A DNA stretch of 59,081 nucleotides, counting the filler, from Dugesia japonica (Eukaryota), in assembly GCA_001938525.1 (NCBI GenBank). It is 5 parts of 5 records of this genome, joined end to end, with 100 filler letters (N's around TTAATTAATTAA, not from the genome) between each part and the next. Parts side by side here need not be neighbours in the genome. Positions count along the whole stretch, not along the records: positions 25,991 to 36,617 come from MQRL01578011.1; 4 more parts are not named here. One strand, 5' to 3'. This document shows positions 1 through 56,000 of this stretch, piece by piece (within the stretch, counting starts at the first letter, position 1; every line of letters begins with the position of its first letter). The notes beneath the pieces are model-generated. The model ran no database searches and was not told where the DNA came from. It saw only the letters and a program-made list of their open reading frames with translations. The position numbers were made by a program, and so were the translations under genes.

Positions 1-67
<67 letters not shown>
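1..67. repeat. (TAT)n microsatellite
   Basis: Perfect TAT run. Similar (TAT/AAT)n runs occur at ~4237-4365, ~21513-21690 and 50893-50956, mostly next to N gaps. Confidence 0.95.
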
Positions 68-3850: not shown

Positions 3851-4230
3851 ACTAGGTGGTTACGTGAGGACACGACCAGGAAGTGACGCAATCCCCGTTC
3901 ATGCCTTATTGTGTAAACAATAATATGTGTGAATTTTCTCACCTTTGACTTCAATTTTTACACCTTTAAATTAACAATTTATTGTTTTTTAGCAAACATT
4001 GAATTTTTTTATTGTTTTTAATGTAAATACTGAACTTTCACAATTTAAATTTTTTTGTGTGAACTTTCAAACCTTAGATCTAGATCCCCCCCCCTATTTT
4101 GATAAGAGGTAAAACTAGCGATGAGCTTCAATAATTACATATATTTTTACTTGTGAATCTTCATATTTTACGCATGAAGTTTCACACTTCGAGCATGACC
4201 TTATTGATGAATATTAATATTTTATTATTA
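3851..4230 (+). repeat. Left terminal inverted repeat of the Polinton
   Basis: ACTAGGTGGTTACGTGAGGACACGACCAGGAAGTGACGCAATC...TTGTGTAAACAATAATATGTGTGAATT...CCTTAGATCTAGAT...AGAGGTAAAACTAG...CTTCGAGCATGA aligns with the reverse complement of ~12760-13149. Inner boundary is approximate. Confidence 0.92.
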
Positions 4231-4704: not shown

Positions 4705-7700
4705 TTTTATTTATTTTATAATGGCCTTAGGCCATAGTAGTATTTCTTTCCACCTAAAAACGCTTATCATCTAAGCACGACAGTGCACATTTCTTGCTTT
4801 CGATCGTATACATATGGTGATTTATTGATCGAAAGCTAGTTTGCTTAACTTTAATTATTTCACCAACTTGTTTTTTTCATTTTCTTCTTCTTCACATATT
4901 CGATTGTATACATTTAAATAATTTACTTGTTTGATATTGGTTTGCTTTAAACTAATACCTTTGGCTTTCATCGTTATGGTTGAATATTCCATCTTCCTCA
5001 AACTGTAACGCTTTGGTCGCAAAAAAACCCATTCATCATAATCTTCTCCTTGACCTTCATCTTTGAACAACCCTATTTGTTGGCTATTTCGTTAGTATAG
5101 AGTGGATGATCTTTAGGATAATTACTGGTATCCAGCAGACCATCCGATTTCACTTCTCTCAACAATCTATTTTTGTCCACTCCAGTACATGTCAAGAAAA
5201 AGCTGTCTGTGTCACCTGCAATGATATGGACTTTGCAGTCAAATTGATGTCTATATTTTTCATACTGTAACTTGTACATGCGTAACTTGCTAAGATCCAG
5301 CACGACCTGACCAATGTAACTTAGCCTATCCAGACAAATACAATTTTTCTCCAGCAAGACACCTTTTAATCCCTCTGCAATATCCACAGTATTTTCGAAT
5401 GTTACTTTGCTCGTATATGTAACAAATTTCTTTTCATTATTGGAGAGTCGGAGATTCATTCGCTTCTTTAAATTCTCCACCGTCTTGCCGTACAGAGCAT
5501 TATTTAGCAACTTATAGAAATCTTTCTCAAATTTTATCTTGGAAGCCGCTCTTCTCATTGAATTTGCGTTTATTAATTTGCAAAATTCTCCGCCTGTTTA
5601 AATCTGATTATCCTATGTACTGCTGTCACACGAGCTCCAAGCTTTATCTATAGCTCCAACAATCGCCAATAAATAATATAATGTCCTTTCAGCTTATGTG
5701 TTAGCAGTAACGTCTTCACCTTTGATCCCCGTAAAGGTAATTGATCTAACCTATCATGATGTTTGATAGGTATCTCCAGATCAATGTCCAACAGGTACCC
5801 AACTTCATTATTGTTGTTGCTACTACATAATATTTTCTGATTCTCCTCTTCCATCTGATCTTCTAATATAAATCCGAAATCTCTATATAGTAAAGGCTGT
5901 GTTAATGCCCATCCATATAGATTATTAATATCAATGTAAAGCAGTGAGGTATTCTCATCTGCCTGCACGTAATGTCTATTTATGAATGTCATGCCACCTC
6001 GAATTCCTGTATCAAATAACCAATAAATTTCCGGATCTTGTAATAATTCAATCGGTCTATCGAATGTTTTGAGTGCACTTGACCAACTTAATCCAGGTAG
6101 CGATACGAATCGAAGTGGCTCCGACCCATCTTCCCCAAGTGCCTTTTCCCTGAATGTTTGGAATACATCAGTCAGTAGATAAATATCCAGTCCCATATAA
6201 TATAGCATGTATTCCAAAAGATTCTCGCTCTTAGATTTCGCCCATGCTGACATTGCCATTTGATATTCTTCACTGGTTATTTCTTGCCATTTTTCCGGTA
6301 GGGACTTTTGATAAACAAGCATCTCATAAGATGTCGCAAACTCGTACGGAAATATTCCTTTACTCTGGTGTCCTTACTGAGGAAATTCACTTGTTGTAAT
6401 TGTCCAGCTTTCGAGAGTTGCAGTCAAAGATGATAGTGGACTGCTCAGGAACTTGAAAGAATCAATAAACCAATTTGACCCCATTACCTACACATGCAAA
6501 AATTGCAATGAATTTTTCGGTAGTTTGTGCAATTGGTCTGGAATCGTTTTAGGGCATATTTGATTATATGATGTGAATCATAACCTTTTAAGTTAGGAAA
6601 CACAATAGCAACTCCATTCTGATCTTCCTAGATAAGTTGCACTGATTCCATGCAGCTCCAAGATATTTTCCCGAGAAATGATCATGATCTCGAACCAGCT
6701 TCTTGTTTTTAATTCCACACAAGTAGCAATGTGTGCTTTTCATAAATGAATCTTGTTCAATCGTTGTTATTTTTCATGCCTACATACATATTTTTCTTGA
6801 AACAAGGAGCCACCACATTCTTTGATAATTGACCAATACATTGAAGAAACTCGAACATAAAATTTTCTCAAGAAAATGAATGATATTCACAATTAATTTA
6901 ATAAAAGCCTCACAGCTATTGATGGTATCAAAAGACCTTCTATATCTGCATATATTACAAATCCCGATGTTATAGTTTTTCCAAAATCCTTGAATATCAA
7001 CTCTTTCTCGTCAGGCATTGTGTACAAGGTTGTTTTTCCGTTATCTGGCTGCATAGTGCTACATGTCGATCAAATGTAGCCTGTGAATAAAATCCGTGCA
7101 GACACTTTTGACACCATTTTCTTGTATTCGACATTTTATTGATTTTACGTCTAAATTTAATAATCTATCCAAATTTACCGTCCAACTGGGTTTTTGTTCG
7201 GAAAATCACACCAACGTGTGGATTTTGTACACAATTTCATTATCTTTTTCTCCATCAAGTACTTCTTTATATTTGAAAACAGTTATTGATAATTCGTTTT
7301 TCCACTCAAATTCTGGGCTATTGATGAGCTTTATTGGCATTGGCTCATCATACACCAATTCATGTAAAAACCTATCGTAATTTTGTGGACGATTACGATG
7401 ATCGTTGATTATATTGTATTTAAGTACCGCCAAGATACTATAAATAAAATATTTATTATCATTGTTACGGACATTCACTATTGATTTGCTTCCCTGTAAC
7501 GAATCAGAACTTTGAATGAATGAGCGACCAGAAAAGTAAATTACAGGAGCAAACTTCACCAAAATAAATCTGAGTTCCAATATTCTTCTAATTTTGCATC
7601 CACTACTTAGCTCAGAATACGTTTCAATTTCTTTATTTGCTTTAGCCGTTATCTTTTCCATAAAATCATTCAAATATTCCATTGCTTTGTAGGATCATGG

Positions 7701-7975
7701 CAATTCCTTAATTTCCTCTCCATAATTCTTCTCAAATTCCGCATGGACTCTAAATTGGAATATACAATGTTTGAATTTCCCAACATCCTCTTCCACTTTA
7801 TCCTTAACATTTGCATGAATGTAGGCGCTTTCATCTTCAAATGATCCACCTTGAACTGGAGACTGATTTTCTGTTTTTCTGTTTTTCTAGCACAGTCATT
7901 AGTAATTGTTGTCATTCTTCTTCTTTTCTGGTTTCCATACAACTCTTCATTTTCATTAATTATTTTTCGTTTCAT
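4705..7975 (-). pseudogene. Protein-primed family B DNA polymerase (pPolB) with N-terminal extension and endonuclease VII-like zinc motif
   Basis: Motifs in correct order across frameshifts: NDNKYFIYSILA / FE..NELSITVF (N-terminal), IYADIE (Exo I), CYLC..VRDHDHFSGKYLGAAWNQCN (EndoVII-like), NLKGYD (Exo II), FIDSFKFL, KGIFPYE, GIRGG, YIDINNLYGWA, KLLNNALYGKT, GDTDS, KAKG, LSCLDDKR, GHY. The 5' end is uncertain. Confidence 0.93.
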
Positions 7976-8615
7976 ATTAATTTTAGCAAATTGCGGTTTA
8001 TTACCCTAATTTTGTTTATAACAAATTGCTGTTGATGATAACGATAAATTAATCAAACTAAATATTAAATTTTCTTTTAATGAGAGTTGTTGCTCATCAT
8101 TATCATCAGATGCTAATGATGATGTTTCAATCATCCCGTCTATACTAAAATCTATTTGTTTTTGTACTATTTATACCTAAAATCCTATCCATTGAATAAG
8201 ACAGATTAGCCTGATTAATAAATGATCTATTAAACATGACGGAATACTGTCGATAATTATTTAAATAATCCTTATGTTTTTTTAAATCCTGATATTGATT
8301 TTTGTAAGTTTGAAGAAAATAAAATAAAGAACTTTTTAAAAACAAATTATTATGATGTAATTAAATATATTAATAATAATAATTTTAATCAATTTTAAAG
8401 TGATCAATGTATACTTTAACAAGTACTAGTCATTAAATGCGTAAGTACACATAACTTATTATTTATTTACGTTTAAAGTATTACAGTATATTATAGTATT
8501 ATTTATAAATTGGTTATTATTGAATTGTTATAATTATATTACATTTCATAGATCATTGTGAAAATGTAAAATAATAAAGGAAATTTTTACATTTAAACAT
8601 TATATTCTTTAATAA

Positions 8616-9077
8616 TTAATTTGATTCATTTAAACAATGTTGTATATATTTTACAATTTCTTTTATAATTCCATGATAATCCAATGACTTTAGTCCGAGA
8701 ATCACCATTTTTCCATTGGCAAAAACATTAACACATAATGACTTATACTTGTTGATTCATAATGCTAGAAATAATTCCGGTTCAAATCAACAATCTAATA
8801 CACTGCTCAGTTTATTTAAATTCACCCCTTGTCCAAGATCACATGTTACAGTAATTGATTGAATGCCATCTATTTGAATTTTGAGATTTTTGCAAGTAAT
8901 TTGTTTATCCATGATTGGTTTCTTGCATCCCATGATTCGACATTTTCCCGATTCAAAAACAATTACTGAATAATCTTTTATTTTTTCTATGTATTGTATG
9001 GGTTTCTTCCAGGTATTAAATTGAAGATCTGAAAGTGAATCAATTTGCTGAGCTCTGTATTTAATATTTGATAACAT
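8616..9077 (-). pseudogene. TATA-binding-protein (TBP)-like gene inside the Polinton (153 sense-codon positions, two in-frame TGA)
   Basis: A single frame holds both TBP repeats: VIVFESGKCRIMGCK, IQSITVTCDLGQGVNLNKL, FEPELFLAL, VNVFANGKMVILGLK (compare TBP ALIFSSGKMVCTGAK, IQNMVGSCDV, YEPELFPGL, LIFVSGKVVLTGAK). No introns. Confidence 0.85.
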
Positions 9078-9157
9078 TGTTTAATGACGAATGAGCAATA
9101 ATCACGAGCTTATATACTTTTTTGTACAAACAAAATCATTTCTATGGTTGTTGTAAA

Positions 9158-9818
9158 ATGTTACTACAAAACAACGTGGTTTTTCAAATAGTCGGTCCCA
9201 GTGAAAGTGGCAAAACATTTGTTTGCAAATTACTACAAAGCAAATTGTTTCGAACAAAGTTCAAACATATTTATTGGCACCAAGGTGGTGGAGGTAAAGC
9301 TAGCTTGACTAATGATTAATTTTGCAAGTTGAGCAAGATTAAAATAATTGATGGATTCGATGATGAGAGGTTAAAGAGATTAAATACTGGTGATGTTATT
9401 GTAATNGATGACTTGTTTCAAGAGGCAAATAAGCAGGCTGATTTTAATAATCTCTTTACAAAAACTGCTCATCATGGTAATGTAACTGTCATCTTCATCA
9501 CCCAAAATCTTTTCCATCAAGGCGGCTTCGTACACGCAATCTAATTGTTCATTATTTGGTTTTTTTCAAAAATCCACGAGATCCAACTGAGGTTGACTAT
9601 ATTTCTCGTCAAGCATTTCCACAACGTAAAGGATTTTTATCTGATGCATTTCGCTATGTAGAATAGTTCTACAAAGGCACATGGATATTTATTTATTGAT
9701 TTTACCTAACAATGGATATTTATTTATTGATTTTACCTAACAATGCCCTGATGATGAACGAGTAAAAACCGATATTTTCAATTCTGAAGGAATAACAGTT
9801 TACAAACCACTGGTATAA
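9158..9818 (+). pseudogene. Polinton DNA-packaging ATPase (A32/FtsK-like)
   Basis: Walker A IVGPSESGKT, Walker B VIVxDDL, LFTKTAHHGNVTVIFITQNLF, YLVFFKNPRD, HGYLFIDF. Contains stops, frameshifts and a ~30-bp internal duplication at ~9682-9742. Confidence 0.9.
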
Positions 9819-9848
9819 ACAAAATTAGTACTTAATCAAAAAGAAGAA

Positions 9849-10340
9849 ATGAATCGATTTAAAAAAGTTGTCATCAAACAGAAGTGTGGTGGTGGTGGTG
9901 GTGGTGGTGGTAGTAATTTAAGACGATTTTCCCGAAGTATTCCATACTTTAGGGAAATTTTAAGGGCTCTATCAAATTCTCGATGGCAAATTATGCACTC
10001 AATGCCGGCATTTGTAATGAGTGATTTCATTAGTGTTTTGCAACAAATTGTTTTGGGCCAAGTCGATGTTGGTCACAAAAGTGGAAAATATTGATTGAAA
10101 CAGTATCAAGAAGTTCTTGTAGATATGGCGAAAGCCATGAATTTAGCAGCAGAGAAACGAATACTTGAAAGACATTTTCCCATACAAAATGAAAACAAGA
10201 AAAAGAGTAAAAAACAAGTTTATTATGGACAAAATGGAAATTGATTTGTTTGGGCTTCACTTTTACCGATTCTAAGTTTGTTGGGAAAAGCTGCTGCAAC
10301 CGGTGCAGATCAAGGCCAATATAATCAATATCTAATTGAA
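9849..10340 (+). pseudogene. Small basic Polinton protein with C-terminal amphipathic segment (putative virion core or membrane-active protein)
   Basis: Lies between ATPase and minor capsid. Ends in QNG..FVWASLLPILSLLGKAAATGA, similar to the QxGxF..LLP.L..LL segments of small Polinton proteins. Reading frame is broken. Confidence 0.5.
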
Positions 10341-10390
10341 TGGCATGGCTATTTAAAGCCTACTTGAATTCAAGCATCTCAAATCTAATA

Positions 10391-11675
10391 ATGAGTTTCT
10401 ATATTGTATTGCCAAGCAATAGTTGTCCAAGAACTCAACCTGATAATAATTCGAGCAAGTATTTGGTTGACTATGAGAATGTTATCAATTTAAAAGATGA
10501 CCATTGGGAAGTTGCCATGACAGAATTTGTTTTCAAATATTGTCCACCGACTATACGGAAAGGTTCAAAAATTGAATATAAAATAAGAGAGGTGATGGAA
10601 ATTGAAGATAAATGTCAATTAAGTATTGTAGGTGGTAGTCTTCAACTTAATAATACCGTCCCTATCAATAAATATAATTGGTATATATTTTCCGATGAAA
10701 AGAAAGTAGTATTAAAACAGATTATCAAGTAAAAATGGAGTTTAAATCGTTATCAGATTCTAAAACATTTACATTCAATTTAATCAATAAATAAGAAGCC
10801 ATTAGTTTCAGTTATTGAATCTGATAAGTAGTTGCTTCTGGAAAATATTCCATCAATAACTTTAAAATTAAAGTTTAACACTATTGAGGAAGAAAAGGCA
10901 AAATAAAAGAAATGGAAGAACATGTAAATGTTGAGACTAAAAATGGAAAACCTGTGGTGTAAGGATTGAAAAATAAAACTTATTGCAAAATCAGTATTAT
11001 TGGTGAAAAGAAAATAACTATCAAATCTGATTGCAATATGGAATTGGAGTTTAATTCATTGTTTGATGCTCGGTTACTAGAGTTTAATTCGCAAAAGACG
11101 AATAACAAACCGATGGATTCATTTATCGAATCAGATACTCAAATGTTGGATAATATTGCCAAAACTGATGTTAAATTAAAATTTACTGAAACCAAAACAG
11201 AAATAAATTATTTTGAATTTGAAATTGATTTAATGGTTACTGATCTGGATAATCTGGTTACATCATTTTTAAAATATATGCCATAAAATATTTAAAGAAT
11301 TTGTTAAAGATTCAAAATTTGGACTGGTCATGTTTAAATTAATTGATAATGTTGAATTTGTATCATTTGATGAGAGTCTTTCGCTAATACTCGGTCTTCT
11401 GCGAAATTCGACAAGTCTACAAAACAAGTAAAGGGTTTGTATAAACCTTTATTACATGGTGTTATTAGATAACTTTATATTTACTCATCAATAGTCGATC
11501 CAATTCTGGTTGGTGATGTACGCGTGCCACTTTTGAGGAGTATATGGGTTGATAATAATAAGCATTCATTTGGTAATGTTGTATAGACTTGAAAATCCAA
11601 TGTATTTACTTGTATCATCATCTTCCATCGTTAAAATTGATGTAAACATAAGTGATGATGCGGGAAGATTGATTG
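10391..11675 (+). pseudogene. Polinton minor capsid protein (penton, single jelly-roll) with a large insertion
   Basis: N-terminal MSFYIVLPSNS..DNNSS.Y.V..WEVAMTEF and C-terminal YIYSSIVDPILVGDVRVPLLRSI...NPMY..V...I.KIDVNISDDAG are characteristic penton motifs. Confidence 0.85.
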
Positions 11676-11752
11676 GACAATATCAGGACAATATCTCCCT
11701 GAACAATATCCCCCAGAACAATATCCCCCTAGGACGATTTCCCCCGGACAAA
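11676..11752 (+). repeat. Tandem ~15-bp GGACAATATCCCCC-like repeats, resembling Mutator-type subterminal repeats
   Basis: ggacaatatca / ggacaatatctccct / gaacaatatccccca / gaacaatatcccccta / ggacgatttccccc / ggacaa. Confidence 0.6.
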
Positions 11753-11914
11753 ACAAATAATGTTGGTAAAAAAATTGGAGCATATGCAACAACGTGTCGA
11801 TTTCAATCAAATCATGTATCAGAATCCATTGACATTTCTATGTGGACAAAATTGTATTGAATGGCTCAAAAGCCAGTATAAACAATGTTAATGTGATTAT
11901 CAATAAATATTTAA

Positions 11915-25890: not shown

Positions 25891-27140
25891 NNNNNNNNNN
25901 NNNNNNNNNNNNNNNNNNNNNNNNNNNNNNNNNNTTAATTAATTAANNNNNNNNNNNNNNNNNNNNNNNNNNNNNNNNNNNNNNNNNNNNCGTTGTACAT
26001 TGTAATCTTTCATTACGAATATTGCTTCATTACAAATTAAACATAAAACTCGACCTTGTTTTCTTTTAGGGATATCAATTCTAACTCCTATATGACCACC
26101 GGTTTTTGTCAGAAATTTGTTTTCAGAACAATTGTGTAAAAGCATGGTACTACATCTGGAAAGAAAATATTGAACCGAATATGCAAAATAATTTTACGTA
26201 GCTAAAATTATTCTAACTATAAATTGAAAGATATGTTTGATTAACATAATCTAACCTGAAAATTCATCAGTATAAACACAAAATATGATGCCTAGCCTTT
26301 GATAATAATTTAACTTTGAACTAAATGTAGCAGTAAAAATTAAATTACTTTAAATAAACAGTGATTTTATTATAGTTATTTTCTATAATTTTTATTAAGT
26401 AAAAATATAAAATTCATTTCGGTTACTAATTACAGTAAGTTATATTTTTTTAAAAAACTCAATAGATGTCTAAATATTATTTTTTATGACTTTTCTCTAG
26501 AATAATCTGCGGACCACATGTCGGACAACCCGTTTTAAACAATCACTATTTTTCTTTATTTATTTGAAATTATTTTTAATAAAGTTTTTAGAATCACAAA
26601 TTAATTTTAAATAATTTACTCATATTGAAATTTTGTTCATAAAAATAAACAATTTGTATTATAAATTTTTTATCTCAAATTAATAAAAGCATATTTGTTT
26701 TAGAAAACACTTAGATTTATTAATCAATTAAATTTATTGCTTACCGTTTCTGATTCATAAATTTAAATATTTCCCCTAATTATATATTAGCAATACAAAT
26801 AGAACTGTAAATAATTAAATAAATAAATAATTTATTTTAAGTAAAAATATGTAAGATAATATTGGTAAAATAATTATAAAAATAAAGATGCAGAATATTA
26901 TGAATGAACATAATTAGTAAAAAAATAATTTAGATAAGACTAGTTCTGAATCAGTTGCGTATCGCATGGGGGCAGATTAGTGCATAATCTTTAATCTACA
27001 ATTCTAACCAAATCAAAATATTAAAAATGCTATTAAAAATACCAAATTTATAATATTAGCCATTTATTAAGATTCGAAAATCAATATATTCGAATTTAAA
27101 TAATTTTATACAATTAGTCCTTTTATCAGACGTTCTTAAA

Positions 27141-27362
27141 ATGGCTAGAACTAAAACCAGGCGTAGGAGTAAAACGAGAAAATCTTCTAATATGAAATCT
27201 AAACGCAGAAGGAGAAACATTAGAAGACAAAAGAAGAAAGAGTCACAAGTTGTTCAACAACCGGCTCCATCTTTCAATCCTTTAGTCAATCCAATAGTAA
27301 TAAATCGTCCTCTTCCTCCACAAAATACAGCTGGTGTAAGATATAGACCTATAAATCTATAA
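27141..27362 (+). CDS. Small Arg/Lys-rich protamine-like protein (73 aa)
   Basis: Intact intronless ATG-TAA ORF in AAAATGG context, GC-richer than its flanks; MARTKTRRRSKTRKSSNMKSKRRRRNIRRQKKK followed by a Pro-rich tail. Confidence 0.6.
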   Translation: MARTKTRRRSKTRKSSNMKSKRRRRNIRRQKKKESQVVQQPAPSFNPLVNPIVINRPLPPQNTAGVRYRPINL

Positions 27363-29927
27363 AAATGGAATTATTAATTTCTATGTAAAAAATTTTATTT
27401 GTAATTTAATTTTAAAGAAAAATAATAGAAATATGTAGAAAACTTTTTTATGATTATTTATCTATCTATTTTGTCCTAAATTTATTTTAATAATTAAATG
27501 AATTTAATATTTATAAAATGAAATCACTTAATTCTAAATACGTTCTTGTAAGTAATCATTAGGAAAACTGAAAATAATTACTGTTTATTTAATTTATGTT
27601 TTAATTGTTCAAAGCTGGTATGTTTAATGTACGACCCGCTTGTCCGATCTGGTTCACTTCATGATTTTATCCGGCTCTCGAAATAATTTCATAAGTCAGC
27701 CAAAGAATTTGGTGTAATATATATTTTCCTGCCGTGGTTTCGACTAAGTTGCACATGCTTGGACTAAATAAACACATTTGAAATCATTTGAATTATTCTG
27801 CCACTCCCAACAATCATGATACATTTCCAAAAATGTCTCTTGAAATAACCCCGAAAAATTCTCTACTATTTTTAAATTCCAGCTATAAGTCAATCCCACG
27901 ATTTGATGTAATATTTATTTTTCGGCACAACCACGACTAATTTACACATGACTGATTTAAACAGTAATTATAAATTACTTAGGAAATCCAATGCATAAGT
28001 GACTAAATTTATACGAACCTTCTTTTATGGTTCACAAAATAGAATTATTGCTTTTAAGGAATCTTTTCGAATGGGTTCTGCTATTTAAAAGAAATTAGTT
28101 CACTAGAATTATTTTAATAACACGTATTCTTTTATTATAAAAACAAATAAATCACAACCTCCTTTTTTAGGAGTTGGTCGTATATTTGGGATTTGGCTTT
28201 TTTCTCTCGTTGGACATCGCATTTTGCATTGTTTTGAGTCTATAACAGATGGTTTTACATCGCTGGTCAAAATTGTCAAATATGTAGCACTAATGATTGA
28301 TTTGTCAATCGTTTCTTTATGGTTATTAAATTCTGCATTAAATGTATTAACTTGAAGAACATTTCCAGGAATTAATTTTTTACCGTCATTTTATTTTAAT
28401 TATAATTAATGAGAAACTTTCTTTCATCTACGGTTTTATAAATCTTTTTTAAGTAACCCTCTCTGTTCTGTTTTTACTATTGCCAAATAATTAGTATTGT
28501 ACTCTTATTTTATGCCTTATTTAGTTTTGGAATCTATCTTCTCTAAATGTACTCTCTCTTCGTTTTAAATAACTTTTATGCTGTACCCCATTTTATTTCC
28601 CTGCCTTTTCTCAGCCCATTGCAAGCAATTTGCCCCACATTTCTCTATATCTTTATCCATATTAGTTCATTTATGATTTTTTGATATTAGTCAATGTTCA
28701 GCATTTGGATGGCCTAATTGTCTGTGAAAATATTTTAAAATATTATTGAGATTGTTTTCATTATATTTCCTATGGGAATGTTTTAATTCATTGATTTTTC
28801 GATAACTTTTACCATATGAATTGTTGGATATTTCTACTCAACAAGTTAATTTATGGTCCGTTAATTTAAAATTATTGAATGAAAAATATGTTTATGAGTT
28901 TATGGGTGTAGATTTTTTCCGTTGTATGTTGATACAGTTATTATATAACAAATATAATTATTCAAAATATAGATATAGTAATATTTGTGTAACTTCCATA
29001 TATAAATAAAATAATCAATACCTTTTAAAATTTATTTTTGGTGTATAAAAGATAAAATGTGCTTATACGCTATCCAAATCCTTATCAGCTAATTTTAAAT
29101 CAAACTGGAGCTGCTTCCCACAAAGGTCAGAGTCCAGATGGCAATTTTTACTGAAAAATAAGTAAAAACGATCATTATTTATACTGATTTGATTATGCAT
29201 ATTATACTAGTTTACATGCAAAACTATGAAAATAATTACAGAAAATAATTTACATGCATGAATTTTTCTCACTAAAATCGATTTATTTTTCTTACCAAAA
29301 TAAAATAATTATGAACTGATTTATTACTCTCACCAAAATAAATCTAGAATTATTTACATATGAAAAATTTAGGTTAATTGTTACTAAGTGCGATATTATC
29401 TGCAAATTAAATAAATAAAAATAAAAGTGCAGTATAATTTACAAATTAAATAAAAATAAAATAAAACAAAATATTAAAATGATGATCAATGTTAATTCAA
29501 AGTCTGATCAAAGATATACATTCTCGGACTAAGATCTGAGCATCCACTTGATTGTTGATTGAAAACTGATTATTTGTTTTGTTAACTGTTTCTGTTTCTG
29601 TGGTCTTTGTTTTTATGTTTCGTAGTTGCTTAATTGTATGCTTTTATGTGATCTCAATAGAATCACTCTTATTTTACTTTGAAACTTTGACATTTTATCT
29701 AGTTTCTATGTCGATATATATTATTTCTCATTATTCGCATTGAAATTCTCTGGTAAATGTATCTACGTTTGCTTGCAATTCCACTATTTGATGCTAGATT
29801 TCAAAATCATTAGTTCATTAATCTAGGAGTAATGTGATCCATTTTGTCTTTTCCAAATAAACATTCATGTTAAACTTTCATGATATGTGCGAATAATAAA
29901 TTTCTTTCCCAGTAAATAAAGCTTATA

Positions 29928-30459
29928 CAAGTAACCCTCCTAAAACGCGGTAAATAGGTTCCTAAAATATGCCGCGTTGTAAGAAATCGTGTTGTAGGGG
30001 ACGTTAACTCTATACAAAAATCAGAGTTTGATTCCAAATCGCAAAATTGGTTTTTATAAATACTTACTACATTTTTGTTTTTTATTGAGTTTTAACAACA
30101 TAATTTGATAACACCTCATTTTCTTTTAAACAAAAACAAAACAAAATAAAATAAAAATAGAATTTAAAAGCTACTTAACATATTCAAGTTGTAATGAATC
30201 AAAATAAAAATAAAACGATAGCTTTCAACAATTCTAAATACACTCCCCTCATTACATAGTCTCACTATGCTCCTATATTAATCTTCTATTGATTTAGCAA
30301 CAATTTCTTGAATGACTATTTCCGGCAATAGTGCTTTCCGAAATAATTGCGCTACATATAAAAATAATTCCGTGAAAATCGCGTTGTAGGAAACTTTTCG
30401 CATTTTGCCTTGTAGCGAAATCGCGTTATAGAAGTTCCACGTTGTAGGAGCGTTACTTT
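29928..30459. mobile_element. Non-autonomous pogo/Tigger-like MITE
   Basis: TA|CAAGTAACCCTCCTAAAACG ... CGTTGTAGGAGCGTTACTTT|TA imperfect TIRs; internal CGCGTTGTAG repeats near both ends. Confidence 0.7.
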
Positions 30460-30789
30460 TATTTCTTCACAAAGTAGTAAACTGTCAAGAATTTTTTTGT
30501 GGTGATATAATAAATTCTTTCTACCTTCGAAAATTTCTTAGATATGTTGCAAATTGCGTCTTTTTCGTTATCCTGAATTTCGTTTCAAACTCATCCTATT
30601 GCAAAATGACTAACGTATGTATCCTATACACAAATATCATTCCTAATATGTTTTAATGAGTATAAAACAAATATTTTGGAAAACAAATTTTGATAATTAA
30701 AATTTTTTTTCAATTGCAAATAAAAATATAAAAACATTAATTAAATAAAACAACAGAAATACTAATAATTAGCATTTAAGCAAGATTTG

Positions 30790-31420
30790 GCAGGAATGTT
30801 AAGAATGGAAAACACCTGAAAAGGGTGATAAAAATTTTAGGAATTAAAGAAATGAAAAGATTGATGGAGATTTCTCAGATAAGCAAAGATGTATTCGTGG
30901 CGGATAAGTTGGATGTTAGTCAAACATATTTGATAAAACACAAGAGTGTGCTACATGGCAGACCAATTAATATTAAGCAGTACAAATAACCGATACACTT
31001 AGAAGAACAGATTAATGAAGCGACCCATAATTTATTCGTCAATAATATTATTCGTGGACATAATTCGCTGTGGAATGTTCCCTTAAATTGTGTGTGCAAA
31101 AGGCAACATTGACATTCGACTGTGTCTGAATTTCACACAATTGAATGCATTGACAGATATACAAGCGTTTCCTATGCCTAATATTGAAAAAATTCTAGAC
31201 AAATTAAACGGTGCAATAATATTTTGCTCGATAGACTTAGGAAATGTTTATTATTTAAGTGGAATTGAAAGATGTGTCTTAGGTGAAAACAGCATTTTCT
31301 ACCAAATTTAAAACAATAAAGACTTTTGATAAATCTATTTGTGTAAAGAAATTGCACGGTTTCTTAGAAATTTGTAACTACTATAAGAAATTCATAAGGC
31401 AGTATACTAACAAAGCGTGG
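30790..31420 (+). mobile_element. Ty3/Gypsy reverse transcriptase remnant
   Basis: NSLWNVPL, IRLCLNFTQLNALT..AFPMPNIEKILDKLNGA.IFCSIDLG, KTAFST, GFLEICNYYKKFI; the YxDD region is deleted. Confidence 0.88.
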
Positions 31421-32379
31421 AAACCGGAACAGTTATTCAATGGTACCAGTCCGGGACTAAAACCTCAAAAGATTGGTTTGGATTCAAGTTCGGGTTAATC
31501 AAAATAAAAAATGTGAGTTTAGGGTTCGGGTTAAAAATTTTAAAAAACACATGGTACAAACTACAACATCTTTTTTTTCATGTGCCAACCATCTTTAATT
31601 TCAGTATATTTCTATCTCGTTTTAATCTGAACTATTGATAGAAGAGGTGGCATTTTTGTTGCAAATTAATTTGAGAACATTTTCTTTCTTATTTAAAACT
31701 TGTTCAAGAATATCCCCATCTTCTTCCGAAGAACTAGAAATTGATGTTTTTAAAAAAATTCTCTTCTGTTCTCCCCATTTGTAAATTTTTGTGAATTTTA
31801 AAGGTTTTAAAATTTTAATTCTTAGCATTGCAAATATCTTCGAGTTTTGGAATTAATCTAAATCTGCTATCTAGATTTACTGCTACAATAAAAAATTAAT
31901 GAAGCTGTTTTCTCTTCATAAGTAATGTATCAAGAGATCAAACAATTAAATTTCTTATGTAAGCAGTAATTTCATTAAGTTTTTTAAAATAAAATCACTA
32001 AATCAATTATCAAGTACTTTATCGAATCCATTAATTTGATATAAATTTCAATAGGTATATTCTGAAGAATATGTACATCTTATACAAATATAAACAGATG
32101 CCATAAGTGTACATTAAATTATTATTATTATTACCATTATATTATTGTTGAGGTTCCACCTGAGTAGAACAAAAAGGTGGCTGGGGAAAAACAGCCCTNN
32201 NNNNNNNNNNNNNNNNNNNNNNNNNNNNNNNNNNNNNNNNNNNNNNNNGTGTAGAGCGGTTGACCTCTTCTTTATGAGAGGTGCACACTCATACACCTTT
32301 AATTTGGGTCCATACCTTTCCCTTAACTTATACATAAGATTCGAAGAGAACTAGTTGAAAGATTCTATTGACAAAACTA

Positions 32380-32753
32380 TTATATTTCTCCCAACACACT
32401 AGGATCTAACCATTGATCTGGATCGGTAACCAAGAAATCGAAGGCGGCGACATCGTCACATCGAACCCAGGTAGGGTTTCCTAATTGTCGAGAGAGATCG
32501 GATATATATTGCTGGAGGAAATCAATTTTCCTCTGCAGTAACAATTCATTTTTATCCTCCAATGCTTTTGTCTGCACCACCAGGTCGTTCTGTTTTTTCA
32601 CCGCCTGATCAAGTCTTTTGATTAGGCGATTTTGTTGGTCTAAATTCCTGAAGAGTGCTCTGTCAGTTTTCCGCTTAAGATAGTGTTCTATAAGTAGGCG
32701 GCGCAATATGCGATGACATCTGCGGATATTACTAGGAAAAGTGATGCGAGGCA
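32380..32753 (-). CDS. Orphan antisense ORF (basic N-terminus, coiled coil) starting at a splice acceptor
   Basis: Open frame of ~124 codons; ACTAAT branch-like motif, then TTCTTTTAG|TG CCT; no ATG of its own. Confidence 0.55.
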
Positions 32754-32867
32754 CTAAAAGAATTTAAATTAGTAATTGGAAATTTAACAAAAGTGGTCAA
32801 AAACTAAAACCATAATGAATTCATAAGAACTATTAAATGATATATTTATTTACGGAAACGTGCTTGG

Positions 32868-33224
32868 TCATGGTCGAGATGTTTGGGTGCTTTTTTCTAT
32901 CATCAAAGACTTGAGAGGTGTTTTCTCCTTGAGAAATAAGACATTCTTAACCAGTTTATTCTCTCGGTCATGGCTGGACCGGATCATTTCTGCGAAGGAC
33001 TCGACTTGTCTCTTACACACCCGCTCCTGCGTGTGGGAAGCTTCAGCTCCCTTTTGAATGCGATGCATTTTTGTTTGTACTGCTGTACCTTACTATTGAC
33101 GGTGGTTATTTCAGCCTCCCAACGTCGCTTAGCAAGTCGGTAGAGGTCCCAAGTCATTTCTTGGTCCTCGCTGGTGTCTCTCATTTTTTTGTGGGAGCTG
33201 AAGGACGGTTCAGAGAAGAATGCA
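32868..33224 (-). pseudogene. Orphan antisense coiled-coil ORF ending in KSTQT (frameshifted at A-runs)
   Basis: Acceptor TATTTTAG|TG at 33224; ORFs 32984-33184 and 32868-33068 join if one A is added; AATAAA at 32845-32850. Confidence 0.5.
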
Positions 33225-33384
33225 CTAAAATATTATTATTACAATCATTGAAGCACACAACGCTTAAAAATACACCCTTATATTAATATAGAGTGAAATT
33301 TTCTTTTAATGAATTAACAAGGACATAAATCAGATTATCGTTAAGAAGAGACACTTATTTATTTTTAGGTTACAAACAAAGATA

Positions 33385-33737
33385 TCATTGTGAATCAGTA
33401 ATAGTATCAGTATTAGGATCGGTGTTCTCGACATCGTTAACACCGGAGTGCTCTCTCATGCCCCAGAGTAAGTTGGAAATGAAAGCCTGCACCACTGAAG
33501 GTGGGGCCGGATGTTGATAATTAAACGACGTAACATGGTTAGGCGCCGGTCCGTTCCATTGTTGGAAGTGTATTCTCTCACCAAAGCTCTGGATGCGAGC
33601 CACTGTCGCCTCAACAGGTGGTAAATTTGATCTATCCACCAAAATACCTGCATCTCGATTATGCGGATTATGGTTGGTTCTAATAATTACCCGGCAAGTC
33701 CTCCGATCTATTACCTGTTCCCAAACGGATTCCATTT
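33385..33737 (-). CDS. Orphan antisense ORF (116 aa)
   Basis: Acceptor CCTTTTAAATAG|AA ATG; intact frame MESVWEQVIDRR...; AATAAA at 33358-33363. Confidence 0.6.
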
Positions 33738-33818
33738 CTATTTAAAAGGTAATAATAATTATTACTAACAAATTTCATATATGAAAAAATTATACGAGTA
33801 ATGATTCTAAGACAAAAC

Positions 33819-34042
33819 CTATGAATTGGTTTTATATTTCTTTTTATTATTCAACATAATAGAACTGAAGATGGTCAACTTTTTATCTAAGGGGAACATC
33901 TCTGTGAAACATTGGAGATCAGTCTCGTCAGGATGTTCTATTTTGCCATGAGTTAGAACATGGGCTATCAGTTGCCTCGAACGAGCGGCCTGTCGTTGCT
34001 TCTTTATCAGTCTTAAAGCGCGTCGCAACTCTGCGGGCATAG
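33819..34042 (-). CDS. Orphan antisense ORF (73 aa from MPAELRR)
   Basis: Acceptor CTTTCTTTTAG|CT ATG; intact basic frame. Confidence 0.5.
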
Positions 34043-35063
34043 CTAAAAGAAAGATAATCAAACATAAAATAATGGTTTCTGTTCAAATTTAGTACTCCTG
34101 AGATATTTTACGAGGAATGCTCATTAACAATGACACTCGTTACTGGGGTGCGGTGGCGGGGATGGACCGAGGAATGTAACTAGATTTATGTTGCTTTCGA
34201 AAACAAGAGGACGTAACAATGTATTGGAGTACTAGGTCGAATATTGCCAAAGGAAAACTTAGAGTTGATGCAAACATTATTCCTCGCCTAGAATTATTTG
34301 AAGGATGTAGTTAATATATTCCGCAGTGTAGAAGCAAATTACAACGTTCAGGACAGGTTTCTCGTGATGTCGATGAGATTAATAATTCCGATCATAGGAT
34401 CCATGGTTTTAGTATCAAGGTTGCTAGTAATAATGATAACAATAAAACTGGTCATAATAATGATCAATAATATTTCCAACGATGTTGTTAGTGTGAATCA
34501 TAATGATAGAGCTACCCCTACTAAACACCATACTACCCTCCAAAATAATATTTCCAAGGGCGGTGACAATGATGGCCATACTGCTAGTCATAAACAGCGT
34601 TACATATGATTTTTGCCTCAGTACAGAGATAAAACGAGAAGTAATCTTATGGATGAGAATCACCTATATAATAATAACAACGGTAATTATGACAAAGAAT
34701 ATAATAAATCCGGTTAACGCCAATACGATTGGTCATATAATAATAATACCGAGTAATAATTAATAGTGGTAGGGGTTATAATATTATTATCAATATGAAA
34801 AATCGACGATAATTTTAGTACTAGTGAGGGGAATGCTAACTTAATCGGTAATAATAAATTGAATAATGGTGATAATAAAGATAAAAGAAACACATAATTC
34901 TAAATTTTGACCTCACCAATTATGGATGGATCATCATAGTGGCCATCATAAGCAAATTGTCAGTATCACATCGAGGAATATGCTTAAATTCTTAACAGCG
35001 ATGCTAAATATATGACTAATCTTGGAGAGAGTTATATTATGGTTAATTTTTTTTAAAGAGAGG

Positions 35064-35534
35064 TGTGAGTCATTTCTAATAATTCAACTCAATTTACAGC
35101 TCTCTTATTTTGTTTCAATAGTACGTGTCTGATCCTGGTACACGCTAATTATGTGAGTAAGACCACAAAATATTTTCTGCTACACACCGATATTACATCT
35201 CGGGAATGACAGAAACAATTTAGCCATAACCAGAATTTGTGTGTAATTTGTTACTGATGATGATTACGTACTTGAAAAAGATAAAACTATGATAATTGGA
35301 GCAGCTAGATCAATTCCATTAACAGCGACATTACCAGTATGTGATGAACCAGATCTGGACACTATTAATTCCAGTACGAAATTTATACTGTCCCGCGAAA
35401 ACAATTTATCGGACTATTAGCGCAGGCTTGATAAATCGAGTTAGTGGATATTTTTTGCTGGGATTTCCAATTTGCAAATATATGGATATTATTTTTTTCT
35501 ATTATAAAACAACGCACTGGGTGAGATAATCACA
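35064..35534 (+). mobile_element. 3' LTR of an LTR retrotransposon (471 bp) with polypurine tract
   Basis: T-run and PPT AAAGAGAGG (35055-35063) directly followed by TGTGA; ends in TCACA (inverted TG...CA termini). No partner LTR is visible in this contig. Confidence 0.7.
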
Positions 35535-37569
35535 TTGATAAAAAAAAATATATGTTTTGAGTTTTCGTAATTTAAATATAATTATCATAACTAATTTTAA
35601 TATAATCAATTTTTTCATAGAATTATATATATTTAATATCACCAAAACATTCTAAACATAATTCAACTAAGTATAAAATTAACTTTGTAAATAATTTCAG
35701 TTTTGTTTTCTTTTCTGCAACTTTGCTTAGAGCGCTTGATTTTGATTGAGAATTTCTCCTGATTGTGTTCCTATTATTTTCCTACTAAAATACTTTCGTT
35801 CTAGAATTCCAAAACAGGTATAGTTAAATGATCTTTGAAAAATCGTGATCTTACGAATGATTATGTGATGGCTGATTATAAAGCTTCTCGTCAATTCTCT
35901 TTACAAATCAATTTGGCAAAAATAAAGCTTGGTTAGCTTAACAAAATAATTAAAATTTTTGTCTATATTCTTCTAATTTTCTGGGGGTTTAAGTATCGTT
36001 TTACAAGACACCCAAACTTGTTTGGCATTGGCCCGTTATTTTTACTTCAAACTTCTGGTTTCTCATTGGCGATGGTGCCGATTTTCAGAGTTTTTACGGA
36101 TTTTTTGGCATTCTATTGGTGCCTATTTTTGGAATGGCACATGATAATGATTCCTTTGTTCTAATTTTATTTTTAGATTACCTATTGGTTCGTTCTTTAA
36201 GGTCCTGCAGTACCCTTCTGGATGATGGTAAAATTTTTGGAGTGTAAAATTCAGATACCCTGTCCTATTTTCTTTTTGAATTTTCTTGCGCCGAACTCCT
36301 GCGATTTCCTGGAGCAAAGTTATTCTCCTAAAATGAATTTCGGCCAAATTTTAATTTATTTTATACTTTATTTAATAAATATTTTTTCGTGATTAATTAT
36401 TTTTGTTAATAATTTGCTTTTTTCTTTTGATTATAGTTTATAATTTCTTTTAATTGATGCAATTTGGGCAGGTTGTGTTTGGTTATCTAAGCTCTTCATT
36501 TTCGATTTTTTCTTAATTTCCAAAATTTAATACTTTATTATCTACTTCTGCTGGATCTTTATCCTTGATTTTCTTTCTGGTTTAATTGGTTTTGCCGTGT
36601 TTTGTATTTATTGTTATNNNNNNNNNNNNNNNNNNNNNNNNNNNNNNNNNNNNNNNNNNNNTTAATTAATTAANNNNNNNNNNNNNNNNNNNNNNNNNNN
36701 NNNNNNNNNNNNNNNNNTGCTTCGACCGAATTTCTTATCTAAAATATGATTTGCATTTTTATTCATGAAAAAAAGTACATTGTTAGTTGAAACTGATTAT
36801 GCATACTCTTTATACGCTTCTTTATAAAATATCAATTTTATTTTATCATAATTCTTTTCATTTGACAGCCGGTTGCTTATTCTCTGCTGGGTATTTCAAT
36901 GTCGACTTTTTGGAAAATTCAGCTAGTGCTGAAGACTTTGAAATGTGAGAATTAAAATAAATTTATGAATGAATTTTATGCTTCATTAAACGTAGTGGAT
37001 AATACGGATTCTGGATTGTGTCATTTCTTTTTGACATTTCATTCTTTGAAAATTCTATTCAAAGAAAACTGCACACCATTTCGTTTCAGTATAGTACAAA
37101 GCATAAATGCCAACATCATTGGCACAAAATATAAAAACAGAAAATATTATGTGTAAAGAAAATGAAACAAAAACATTCAATTTATACAATAATGTGGAGT
37201 CAATTTCAAAATATTTTTTTTTACCTTTTTCTCAACATTTTAAATTCACATATATTTTTACTGAATAAATCTTTATATTTTAAACTGATTTACTTTAAAT
37301 CTAAATTAAGTTTTCTATTTTTCTGGATAAACTTTTAAATTAAAGCATAGTCGAAGAATTCTTGTCAACACTTATTTCAAGCATACAGTAACTTTTCAGT
37401 AAATATTTTATTAAATTCTATTTTAATTTTTATAAAGATTTGTATTAATAAAAATATAATTAAATAATTATTAACAGAAAAATATTGTTAAAATGTAGAA
37501 AAATCCACGTAAGTGTGTGTCTGTGAACGTTTAGAATATTTGATGATAAATAAATAAAATCCTAAAATA

Positions 37570-53767: not shown

Positions 53768-56000
53768 GTAGTAGCTGGTGTTAAGCAGCACGTTGCCCAA
53801 CGAGGACCACATCATAAAAAACGATTGAAAAAAAAAATAAATTAACAAATATGTTCTGCAGAGGAGATGGTATTGAGAAATACATCAAACCGTGCAAATT
53901 GTCTTTTGAAGCTAAAAATATCACCCAGATTAAATTACAGGAGAGATTAGTCTCTTGTTTGTTAGATGATTATTTGTCGGAAGAATATGTAAAGACGTTT
54001 AAAAACGTTAAAGGTTTTCAGGCTCGTTTACCTATCGCATTTGAGAAAAAGAAAGATGTTATCAAAGACCTTCAAAGTTTTGTTAACTACAGTCGTAGAA
54101 ATGAAGAGATTCAAGTTTACTTTAAAAATGTAAAAGATTTAGTGGAAAGGTTATTCACAAATAAAGATTTTACAAAGGAAAAATGATAGCAAAGAAGCTA
54201 GTTATTGTTTTACAATTGCAAATATTGCGAGAATAATTGGTGGACATAACTATTGATCGTTTTACAGAATTCATTTAAAATAAAAATTTTGATCAAAGAT
54301 TTTGTTTTTTATTGATATTTGATAAAAATTCGAAATTTTGAACTTGTATTTGTCAGGAATTGACTTTTAATAACTAATGCGAGATATTTTTAAGATAATA
54401 AAAAAGTTGAGAAAGAAGAAACTTTGCGAAAACGACAGAATATAAAGCAAGTTGAAGAAACAATGGTTTTAGTAAATCAAGTAGAGAAAAACAGAGATCA
54501 AGTCAATGCAGTTAGAAGTTACGCGAGAGCTACAAGTGGAAATTTTCAGAAACCTGTAAATGATAAAGTGAATAGATATGTGTGTCAAAGAACGGTAAAA
54601 CAAAATATCGAATGTTGATTATGTCATAAGATTAGTTTTACTAAAGCAAATAGTCCAACGAAAAAAGTGGTAGAGTGTTGGACTTGTCATAAAACATGAC
54701 ATATAAGTCGAGATTGTTTAAATGAAAACCAACAAAATGTTTTGGTTGTGGAAAGATTGGCCATATTAGAAAGTTATGTCAAGAAAAGAGGTGTAAACGA
54801 TGTGGTAATGGTGGACATATAGCAGAAGAGTGCTACACAAATTTGAAAATGAAAAGAACAAGTGAGAAATTTATGACTGAAGAAAGATAAATGTCTAATA
54901 ACTGCACCAATATTGTGTTTTCCAGTCATAAACAGAGAATTTATATTAGATACAGATTACAGTTTTGATACAATTGGAGCAGTGTTGTCACAGAGAAATA
55001 AGGAAAGAATAGAAAGAGTTGTTATATATGGGTCATGCTCAATGAAGAGTCCTGAAAATGGATATTGCATCACANGAAAGGAATTATTGGATGTTTATTA
55101 TTCATTCATTCACTTCAAACATTATTTGTACGGTAGAATATTTCCTCTTAGGATAGATAATAAAGCTCTAACATTAATGATGACGAGAAAAAACCAAATA
55201 TGTCACAATTTATCTAGACCAAGTTGTGAAATTTGTGTACAATCTCAAATGTCATATGAAGATGCCAAGAAAGGGAAGATTAAAACGAGAATACTGAACA
55301 TAATTGAAAAGGAAAAAGAAGAGCAATTAAATATTTTTGAGGAAACGTATTTAATCAAGAAAATAAACATTTCGGATAACAAAATACATAAAACAATAGA
55401 AACAATACAAAAAGCTATTTTTGAAATGTGGATGTTGAGATTTGGATGCCTAAGAGAGATAAGATTAGATTGTAGAAAAGCTTTTGAATACCGAGTTATG
55501 AGAGAATTTGCACTGAAGCTATATATTAAACTTTGCTTTTCGAGTCCCTATCATAATATTGCAAATGGACAAATTGAAAAACATTTCAGAATAATTTGAA
55601 ATTTGATTAATACAACACTTTAGGAAAGAAAAACTACAGATTGGGCAGATCGTTTTTTCGGAAATAGAATTTACAATGAACACGACAAAACAAAAAACGA
55701 CTGGAAAGAGCTCGGTTGAGATCGTTTTTGTAAAGATAATTAGCAGAGAAAAGTGGTGACTCAGACGTTACAAACAGAACTAAAGCTAACACTTCAGACG
55801 TGATTACTAACAGACAATTAAAAGTGCGTGATTATGTATTCATCAAGATAGAAAGTACAAATATTAGTCAAGACAGATTTGAAGGACCTTATCGAATAAT
55901 TGATATAATTCATGAAATACGGTATGCGGTACAAGGAGAAAATGGACAGCGATTAGAAAGAAATGTGGAAAAACCTAGAAGTTCTTTTAGAATGGGAATA
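53768..56000 (+). mobile_element. Ty3/Gypsy LTR retrotransposon remnant (gag with CCHC knuckles, RNase H, integrase; protease and RT deleted)
   Basis: gag from 53851; knuckles at ~54610-54835; FILDTDYS..IGAVLSQ, YCITxKELL, HFKHYLYG (RNase H); SSPYHNIANGQIEK (integrase); RFEGPYRI; PPT-like AGAATGGGAA at 55989-55998. Confidence 0.88.

Follow-up and report, generated by a model that had tools for sequence, protein, structure and literature searches.

Antisense reading frames, each behind its own acceptor-like site, in a multi-copy element of the planarian Dugesia japonica

The window, that is, the whole stretch of DNA analysed here, comprises 59,081 nucleotides of the Dugesia japonica assembly GCA_001938525.1, filler included, and the features described below lie in the part that comes from MQRL01578011.1 (positions 25,991 to 36,617). 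On the minus strand, four GC-rich blocks, A, B, C and D, begin at 34042, 33737, 33224 and 32753, each of them preceded by a spacer rich in AT and by an acceptor-like TAG. The blocks have 41–46% GC, while the three spacers between them measure 81, 160 and 114 bp at 19–24% GC, in agreement with the ~80–160 bp AT-rich spacers reported in a first-pass annotation, which also read the sequence correctly at all seven of the acceptors and sites that it named. All four blocks start in phase 1, two of them (A and B) with NN-ATG and the other two (C and D) with TG.

Block A (33819–34042, minus strand) follows the acceptor TTTTAG|CT ATG and carries a 73-codon basic ORF (pI 10.2), whose tail is AT-rich and has an AATAAA at 33848–33843 within the frame. 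Block B (33385–33737, minus strand), behind AAATAG|AA ATG, carries an ORF of 116 codons (pI 5.8); in both blocks the ATG lies two bases past the acceptor. Block D (32380–32753, minus strand), behind TTTTAG|TG, is open in phase 1 for 123 codons (pI 9.5), in which there is not one methionine, and an upstream exon is therefore needed. A stop ends each of these three frames, so that the earlier description of intact phase-1 ORFs, one of which (D) lacks an ATG, holds. Block C (32868–33224, minus strand) also follows TTTTAG|TG, and in this copy its frame is disrupted: phase 1 meets a stop at 33181, and the open frames are 33223–32984 and 33089–32868, which implies two frame breaks, one near 33181–33200 and one within 33089–32987. 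A possible fifth GC-rich block, E (32114–32350, minus strand), is of uncertain status; it is open in phase 0, has an internal ATG and is split by a 50-N gap at 32199–32248. Candidate polyadenylation signals AATAAA on the minus strand begin 22 nt past the 33385 stop of B (33358–33363) and 18 nt past the last stop of C at 32868 (32845–32850), closely behind both stops as had been noted, although the hexamer is fairly common in AT-rich spacers and A and C contain two further copies. No AATAAA follows D before the N gap. On the other side of the array, a multi-copy internal stretch (34043–35054), in which both strands lack a long intact frame, is predicted to be the first intron of an antisense RNA.

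The arrangement is not what chance would be expected to give. Among 35 YAG sites with a clean upstream tract, drawn from 143 minus-strand AG sites in 32100–35060, the main acceptors of A–D hold ranks 1–4 by GC step. Three weaker acceptors proposed at first, of which 34663 and 34287 lie in the stretch 34043–35054, did not fare as well: 34663 ranks 6th of the 35, 34287 and 32350 are outside the best 14 listed of the 35, and the phase-1 frames behind all three run for just 2–6 codons. The acceptor-frame array on the minus strand is, on balance, partly confirmed. Across the whole window, with both strands counted, there are 512 AT-context YAG sites, of which three, namely A, B and D, have TG or NN-ATG behind them together with a phase-1 frame of at least 70 codons, and two minus-strand frames of at least 118 codons were obtained in 0/2000 block shuffles. 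At the array's own rate (12/103 AGs), the start pattern of TG or NN-ATG behind all four AGs has a chance of ~2e-4, an estimate qualified by the post hoc choice of the pattern. An exact TG follows ~5% of AGs each, and both ATG-less blocks, C and D, have it. The phase-0 frames of the four blocks close after 9, 8, 4 and 21 codons.

The array belongs to a repeated element and is not single-copy. In the DNA run, 5523 contigs matched, and the bins of the array have depths of 216–138,360 compared with 10.5 for a single-copy contig, where depth of reads or contigs is no exact copy number. Matched depth differs ~60-fold among the blocks, with 4,198 in the bin of A, ~2,600–3,800 in the region of E and 138,360 in C. 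Loose ends of 15–60 contigs each occur at 32937–33008, and the core of block C (~32940–33010) is common to many diverged relatives. Among the 12 of 21 indels listed, all four in 32380–34082 are in spacers, although spacers account for 23% of that length, with the caveats that one pair of the four is separated by 5 bp and that AT-rich spacers readily gain indels; none of the same 12 of 21 is at the frame breaks of C. Among 40 of 400 single-site differences listed, four fall in A, B or D, one silent and three not, too few for a selection test. Processed copies were not seen, as no intron ends at the claimed acceptors among 15 of the 18 DNA joints listed. A joint of 32140 with 35592, considered as a possible empty-site mark, was dropped; its one side is 24 letters long and AT-rich.

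A plus-strand remnant of a Gypsy reverse transcriptase (RT) had been placed beside the array. A Ty3-like relic (E 2e-5) does lie at ~31100–31440, but its tie to the array did not stand: it lacks ~115 residues of the RT core, contains stops and frame breaks, and has the single-copy depth of 10.5, as against at least 216 in the array. The relic probably belongs to a different element. Pfam profiles gave no RNase H or integrase match between the relic and the array, and no gag or pol tied to the array was found; the 5' end of the element lies outside the window.

Upstream of the blocks in their own direction lies a polypurine-tract-like AAAGAGAGG (35055–35063, plus strand), which is short, with a T run before it and TGTGA (35064) after it. 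The latter opens a candidate 3' LTR (35064–35534, plus strand; TGTGA...TCACA, 471 bp), whose right end is uncertain. TG...CA termini together with a polypurine tract (PPT) are a trait of Ty3/Gypsy elements, as is a dispersed multi-copy state, and these traits are present here, but no second LTR copy is present in the window and no step-up in depth marks the LTR. Nor does read depth confirm the right end; multi-copy depth falls to 29 in the bin 35424–35624, and the signal ends near 35424–35440, earlier than an end at 35534 predicts. Within the candidate LTR, the predicted donor of a shared leader (35270–35271, minus strand; TTCAA|GTACGT) would end the exon in A. With a generic scoring matrix, it is the top-scoring minus-strand GT in 34043–35700 (3.45 vs 3.15 and 3.13 for the next); two donors with the exon end in G score nearly as high, and three GT sites inside the array score above it. 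About 110 nt upstream of this donor, a motif match to TATAAA (35382–35387, minus strand) is a candidate antisense promoter box. Between the box and the predicted donor there are two short upstream ATG frames, and none of the three ATGs in 35540–35272 is open to this donor. Rfam gave no match in 31900–36617.

Comparisons of the predicted products with known proteins returned no relatives in the collections searched. No Pfam family was found for A, B, the frames of C or D, exact protein look-up matched 0/6, and there was no homologue in PHROGs (best E 0.027), among PDB sequences (where the top matches, both to designed proteins, had E 0.53 for B and 0.031 for D) or in metagenome contigs. A search of 5.8 billion proteins, confined to near lengths, yielded no homologue of B, D or the last frame of C, and the ESM Atlas yielded none of B or D, with recognition scores (1592 and 1442) below the level typical of known families. 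In viral contigs no homologous locus was found; one search counted one relative of D among 12 stretches and returned no locus. Block A was compared with Pfam, with PHROGs and with the window itself, and was included in the exact look-up. Judged from these frames, the array likely encodes proteins of at least four families without a match in the collections searched. A 14-residue likeness of B to block E (E 0.003–0.011 in a set of six sequences) was judged weak.

The AlphaFold model of B is unusable (pLDDT 39.5), and that of D predicts a single coiled-coil-like helix of 83 residues (7–89; mean pLDDT 78.5). Maximum 19-residue hydropathy is 0.69 or less in all frames, so that no membrane segment is present in any array product; moreover, the array is antisense to the PPT, and env-like ORF3 genes have a sense orientation and a membrane span. 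Because three of the products are basic, D is predicted to be a long helix and none has a membrane segment, the products are likely to be soluble accessory regulators rather than envelope proteins.

Matched RNA reads were few in three runs, 114, 10 and 2 from 1,888, 1,749 and 1,592 million letters, all of them partial and none 99% alike, and none of them covered B, the candidate LTR or the greater part of D. Reads of the run X16 over block C have a direction bias (3.36 vs 0.43), which was set aside, as the same run shows both directions in other bins. The antisense leader with alternative terminal exons that the first-pass annotation had put forward agrees with the anatomy, including a best donor whose exon ends in A, but no splice junction was found in the three runs.

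The reading that we favour, at about even odds (roughly 0.5), is that the locus is the 3' part of a multi-copy Gypsy-type LTR retrotransposon, which would express four antisense frames through one LTR leader cis-spliced to alternative terminal exons. The antisense leader would start in the candidate 3' LTR, run to the predicted donor at 35271 and be joined to one of the four exons; its terminal A would complete the start codon A|TG of C and D, while A and B would bring their own ATG. Each unit, consisting of acceptor, ORF, stop and often AATAAA, would thus give a separate mRNA, with the acceptor and the poly(A) site deciding which one is made. The acceptors and poly(A) signals of the array would survive reverse transcription because they point away from the genomic RNA, and the likely job of the products would be to aid the element's own expression or RNA handling. 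In the adenovirus major late unit, one leader is spliced to a choice of many acceptors, each with a poly(A) site apart, in a DNA virus, for structural genes and with an own ATG in each exon. The scheme proposed here is alike in its one leader, many acceptors and separate poly(A) sites, a likeness by layout alone.

Other explanations share part of this evidence. The same leader splicing might take place in an element without LTRs, of which the array would be the sense genes, with a promoter at ~35390–35440 and with the PPT and TG...CA as coincidences. Such a mobile or virus-like element would suit the end of multi-copy depth ~50 bp upstream of the minus-strand TATAAA with no LTR-like step-up, the single LTR in the window and the single-copy RT relic; it is nevertheless unlikely, given that the T run, purine tract and TGTGA directly adjoin, that the inverted TCACA comes 471 bp on, and that no capsid, polymerase, transposase or helicase match was found in any frame tested. 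Somewhat less likely is a leader which has its own ATG and adds a short peptide at the N-terminus, with its end in phase 1, as in HBZ, from a donor other than 35271. The phase 1 of all four blocks, even of A and B, where a non-coding leader would make it unnecessary, speaks for this, and the N-terminus of spliced Hbz does differ (PMC10186651); against it, the ATG-less blocks C and D start exactly with a TG, A and B have their own ATG, and the best donor lacks an ATG open to it.

Resolution of an operon by spliced-leader (SL) trans-splicing, also suggested at first, is improbable. Flatworms do have SL trans-splicing and operons, and the short AT-rich spacers with a poly(A) signal and an acceptor look like operon spacers, but the fit is poor because flatworm SLs are reported to end in ATG (PMC12582326, available text), which would read the phase-0 frames that close within 4–21 codons, and D would be left without any start codon. 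Slightly less probable again is an ordinary multi-exon gene, captured or element-borne, in which the spacers are plain introns containing stops: their length and AT content are intron-like, the exons are all in one phase, and 17 nt ahead of its stop D has a possible donor in phase 1 (score 1.31), but ahead of the stops of A, B and C all phase-1 donors score below zero (best −0.78), an ATG is two bases into A and B, AATAAA stands behind two stops, and the ~60-fold spread of depth looks as if the blocks were common to relatives separately. The least probable is non-coding repeat DNA with frames and acceptors by chance; the missing homologues, the lack of observed expression and the low Atlas recognition would agree with it, but the shuffles, acceptor ranks, phase coherence and placement of indels in spacers do not.

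Antisense genes are known from other LTR elements. Plant Gypsy elements have antisense additional ORFs (aORFs) between pol and the 3' LTR, such as gene23 of Grande, those of RIRE2 and TRP28 of Retand (PMC7264820; PMC11963269). These resemble the array in being orphan, upstream of the 3' LTR, in many copies and proposed as accessory regulators; according to the available texts, however, they are one or few per element and mostly long (>600 bp), with the TRP28 domain, and that of Grande is expressed from its own internal promoter, whereas the array, in an animal host, has several ORFs of 220–370 bp with one acceptor each and one phase. TRP28 (PF04195) was not found in A–D, for which Pfam is empty, and the available texts of PMC7264820 and PMC11963269 contain no short-ORF array with own acceptors or a split start codon. 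In deltaretroviruses (HTLV-1 Hbz, APH-2/3/4, BLV AS1/AS2), antisense RNA from the 3' LTR is likewise spliced to a downstream exon, with alternative polyadenylation in BLV (PMC10186651); there, one protein is made per virus, and the RNA is non-coding in BLV, in contrast to the at least four predicted alternative coding exons of the array, which have no similarity to HBZ. A start codon made by splicing, AT|G, is described for env of Drosophila gypsy and the springer clade (PMC2585583; bioRxiv 10.1101/2023.08.03.551782), but this is a single sense gene, while the array is antisense, is predicted to form A|TG at two of its four exons and lacks a membrane segment.

Among planarian elements, Burro/GYPSM1 encodes gag, env and pol in one giant polyprotein that also has BIR, BCL2 and ankyrin domains (PMC6431247), and no giant ORF of this type is in the window. 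GLT and GLT2, whose names are Repbase-based, are closer to the array by eye. On the opposite strand of the GLT2 probe, of which the first 400 of 485 nt were covered, a stop is followed by a spacer rich in AT and then by TTTAG|TG, behind which phase 1 stays open for 78 codons, and a second frame is also open for ~72 codons; the first 400 nt of the GLT probe read as a stop, a short spacer and an ATG-ORF (PMC8532177 Table S1). The spacer-acceptor-TG unit of GLT2 is thus like that of the array, the ORF layout is not described in the available text of PMC8532177, and the layout may be lineage-wide. The four published GLT/GLT2 primers, which are short, have at best 5–7 mismatches of 20 in the window. 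The literature searched holds no description of the array layout; an account of the ORFs may already exist in Grohme et al. 2018, the PMC6431247 supplements or Repbase.

LTR elements with additional ORFs in antisense have been described before. The layout found here predicts a precise scheme, with four junctions from one donor and a start codon formed at the joint, for at least four protein families without a match in the collections searched, and one core is common to very many repeats in the genome. Planarian Gypsy-type elements are desilenced under PIWI knock-down, GLT2 in smedwi-2 RNAi animals (PMC8532177), and the array proteins would be candidates for the action of such elements in specific cell types or for coping with piRNA silencing. 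More tentatively, and with somewhat less confidence than in the reading of this locus, it is possible that planarian Gypsy-type elements, including the array family, its abundant relatives and GLT2, carry a modular battery of antisense accessory genes, in which interchangeable exons receive the first letter of their start codon, A, from one LTR leader. If this is true, small genes would be added, swapped and dropped as acceptor-ORF-poly(A) cassettes while the genomic RNA is undisturbed, and an invertebrate retrotransposon lineage would possess expression of the grade of complex retroviruses together with several new protein families.

The minus-strand blocks A (33819-34042), B (33385-33737), C (32868-33224) and D (32380-32753) make up a multi-copy array of orphan reading frames that is real and non-random. 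Their acceptors read TTTTAG|CT ATG at 34042 (A), AAATAG|AA ATG at 33737 (B), TTTTAG|TG at 33224 (C) and TTTTAG|TG at 32753 (D), exactly as the first-pass annotation had it, and take ranks 1-4 by GC step among the 35 clean minus-strand YAG sites of the region. GC content is 41-46% in the blocks and 19-24% in the spacers, which are 81-160 bp long. Phase-1 frames run for 73, 116 and 123 codons in A, B and D, respectively. Over both strands of the whole window, such a start pattern is combined with a long phase-1 frame at 3 of 512 AT-context YAG sites, namely A, B and D, and none of 2000 local shuffles gave two frames as long as those of B and D. Block C is broken in the present copy by a phase-1 stop at 33181, with two other frames spanning 33223-32984 and 33089-32868. 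AATAAA does follow the stops of B (22 nt) and C (18 nt), as had been claimed; two additional copies fall within A and C, and D is followed by none. Of three weaker acceptors also put forward, all with phase-1 frames of 2-6 codons and a low GC-step rank, those at 34663 and 34287 are not accepted, and the block behind 32350 (32114-32350) is kept as a possible one. The array's left end holds 34 nt (32105-32138) that are 76% alike to the block C acceptor region (33216-33249); reading TTTAA|TG on the minus strand, they may represent a further, decayed cassette start.

When contigs from one DNA run were placed on 30600-36617 at 86% likeness (5523 placed), a single-copy contig of depth 10.5 matched 30685-32004 at 25 differences and 6 gaps; the run thus comes from the same species or one very close to it. 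Depth, which under this placement does not equal copy number, is 216-590 over 34017-35423, lies at about 2,200-4,200 over A and B, reaches 12,664 over D, and falls to 29-52 over 35424-35825. Relatives are thus far more numerous over the coding blocks than over the stretch upstream of A, and the array stretch plainly belongs to a dispersed family. The core of C (32940-33010) has the highest depth, 138,360, and a diverged relative of it is transcribed in one RNA run, with loose ends at 32950 (13 reads) and 33002 (8 reads); there is a very abundant related family. All four indels in 32380-34082, among the 12 listed of 21 in all, fall in spacers, which make up 23% of the length; this is moderate evidence of constraint on the blocks, because AT-rich spacers favor indels. 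Among 40 listed single-site differences, the four within blocks A, B and D (one silent, three non-silent) are uninformative on selection. Deletion variants, such as 33674-34688, are seen as DNA joints.

Since D runs for its full length without methionine directly behind the region's second-best acceptor, it needs an upstream exon. A leader ending in A would complete an ATG start codon with the TG of C or D, and the same joint would be harmless to A and B, whose ATG comes two bases in. At the array rate (12 of 103 AGs), the four start patterns have a chance probability of ~2e-4, for a pattern picked after the fact. The top-scoring minus-strand donor in 34043-35700, TTCAA|GTACGT at 35271, has an exon ending in A and lies inside the candidate LTR (35064-35534, plus strand); with a generic matrix the scores of two G-ending donors are only slightly lower, and 35271 is predicted to be the donor of the shared leader. 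TATAAA occurs at 35387-35382 (minus strand), and none of the 3 upstream ATGs is open to this donor. Within the predicted first intron, 34113-34900 (+) carries Asn/Asp-rich, A- and G-skewed frames with few stops and without a Pfam match, possibly a decayed sense-strand ORF.

One antisense leader joined to alternative exons, as the first-pass annotation proposed, is what this layout predicts, in the form of a single cis-spliced leader common to the blocks, with a split start codon; we give the full mechanism a probability of about 0.5. The blocks do not resemble internal exons, because A, B and C have no positive-scoring phase-1 donor before their stops. An operon resolved by SL trans-splicing, the other proposal, would use the same acceptors and fits poorly: flatworm spliced leaders reported in the accessible part of PMC12582326 end in ATG, and that frame soon closes, after 9, 8, 4 and 21 codons in A, B, C and D. 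Antisense placement would make sense for a retroelement: genomic RNA would not use splice acceptors or poly(A) signals of the opposite strand, and these would be copied intact. Three RNA runs of 2026 (5,229 million letters in all) yielded 114, 10 and 2 placed reads, all partial and 0 at 99% alike; they contained no splice joint in the array, and their depth was zero over B, most of D and the candidate LTR. The array family is silent or absent in these samples, and therefore the reads neither show nor refute splicing. According to PMC8532177, SMEDWI-2 represses Gypsy-related elements in Schmidtea, and its knock-down lets them emerge; in a planarian host, repression of this type would account for the blank result.

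A T run, AAAGAGAGG and TGTGA stand in order at 35046-35068, and TCACA ends at 35534; these motifs resemble the annotated polypurine tract and 3' LTR (471 bp, plus strand). Against this reading, the window holds no second copy of the LTR, the DNA run shows no depth step-up over it, and the multi-copy signal ends near 35424-35440, short of the LTR end. On balance, the LTR reading is reasonably likely. To the right of the LTR candidate, 35826-36617 forms another multi-copy repeat (depth 577-6,028). The reverse transcriptase relic left of the array is Ty3-like, matching residues 110-160 of Ty3 RT (E 2e-5) and weakly residues 275-318; it lacks about 115 residues between the two matches, has many stops and sits on the single-copy contig. 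The array's place between RT and LTR is therefore one of position rather than linkage, and the relic is probably an older, separate element. Candidate membership of the array in the Gypsy group is likely. Between relic and array, 31460-32000 is AT-rich DNA in which AACCCGAA motifs recur and a short frame resembles a hAT transposase motif; no Pfam match was found there.

The window itself is AT-rich (mostly 20-30% GC), gapped and rich in decayed mobile elements, with Tc1/mariner pieces, TTA microsatellites and a receptor-type exon at 51798. Its character is that of animal DNA, and composition, TTA microsatellites and the mix of elements suggest a planarian flatworm. Beside a broken protein-primed polB (5073-6373; PF03175, E 9e-10) lie further orphan frames and a TBP-like piece (8787-9080), and 5073-11860 is likely a Polinton/Maverick relic. 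Another RNase H relic of Gypsy type (PF17917, E 2e-19) lies distant from the array at 54877-55599 (+). At 27147-27362 (+) there is a short, very basic, Arg/Lys/Ser-rich, protamine-like ORF with no Pfam and no exact protein match.

Antisense LTR ORFs, spliced antisense genes and splice-made starts are already known: plant Gypsy elements have antisense ORFs before the 3' LTR (PMC7264820; accessible part of PMC11963269), and the portions available to us describe spliced antisense genes from the deltaretroviral 3' LTR (PMC10186651) and, for Drosophila gypsy env, start codons created by splicing (PMC2585583; bioRxiv 10.1101/2023.08.03.551782). Bdelloid LTR elements carry extra ORF3s, and the available part of PMC5408684 describes no antisense ORF; planarian Burro elements, although they carry accessory ORFs, are set apart by a giant polyprotein as defining feature (PMC6431247, in part). 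The closest lead is the GLT2 probe of PMC8532177 Table S1, available for its first 400 of 485 nt. By eye, its opposite strand has a stop, then about 80-95 nt of AT-rich spacer and TTTAG|TG, followed by 78 open codons in phase 1, where no ATG comes before codon 32; another frame stays open for about 72 codons. Because none of four GLT/GLT2 primers matches the window (5-7 mismatches each), the likeness in the available probe sequence establishes a common layout and not family membership. No published account of such an array was found; Grohme et al. 2018, Repbase and one supplement, outside our scope, may contain one.

The protein collection search found no relatives of B, of D or of the final frame in C, Pfam and PHROGs none of A-D, and PDB sequences and the Atlas none of B and D. 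B is acidic and the other three are basic (pI 9.5-10.2); no membrane segment was found in the A-D products, which are not envelope-like. HHpred or AlphaFold had been suggested for each ORF; single-sequence prediction gives D as one helix (residues 7-89, mean pLDDT 78.5), and modelling of B yielded nothing usable. Our best guess, by analogy, is that the products would be soluble accessory regulators of element RNA or host silencing, and the array most likely works like a multi-gene version of the deltaretroviral antisense genes.
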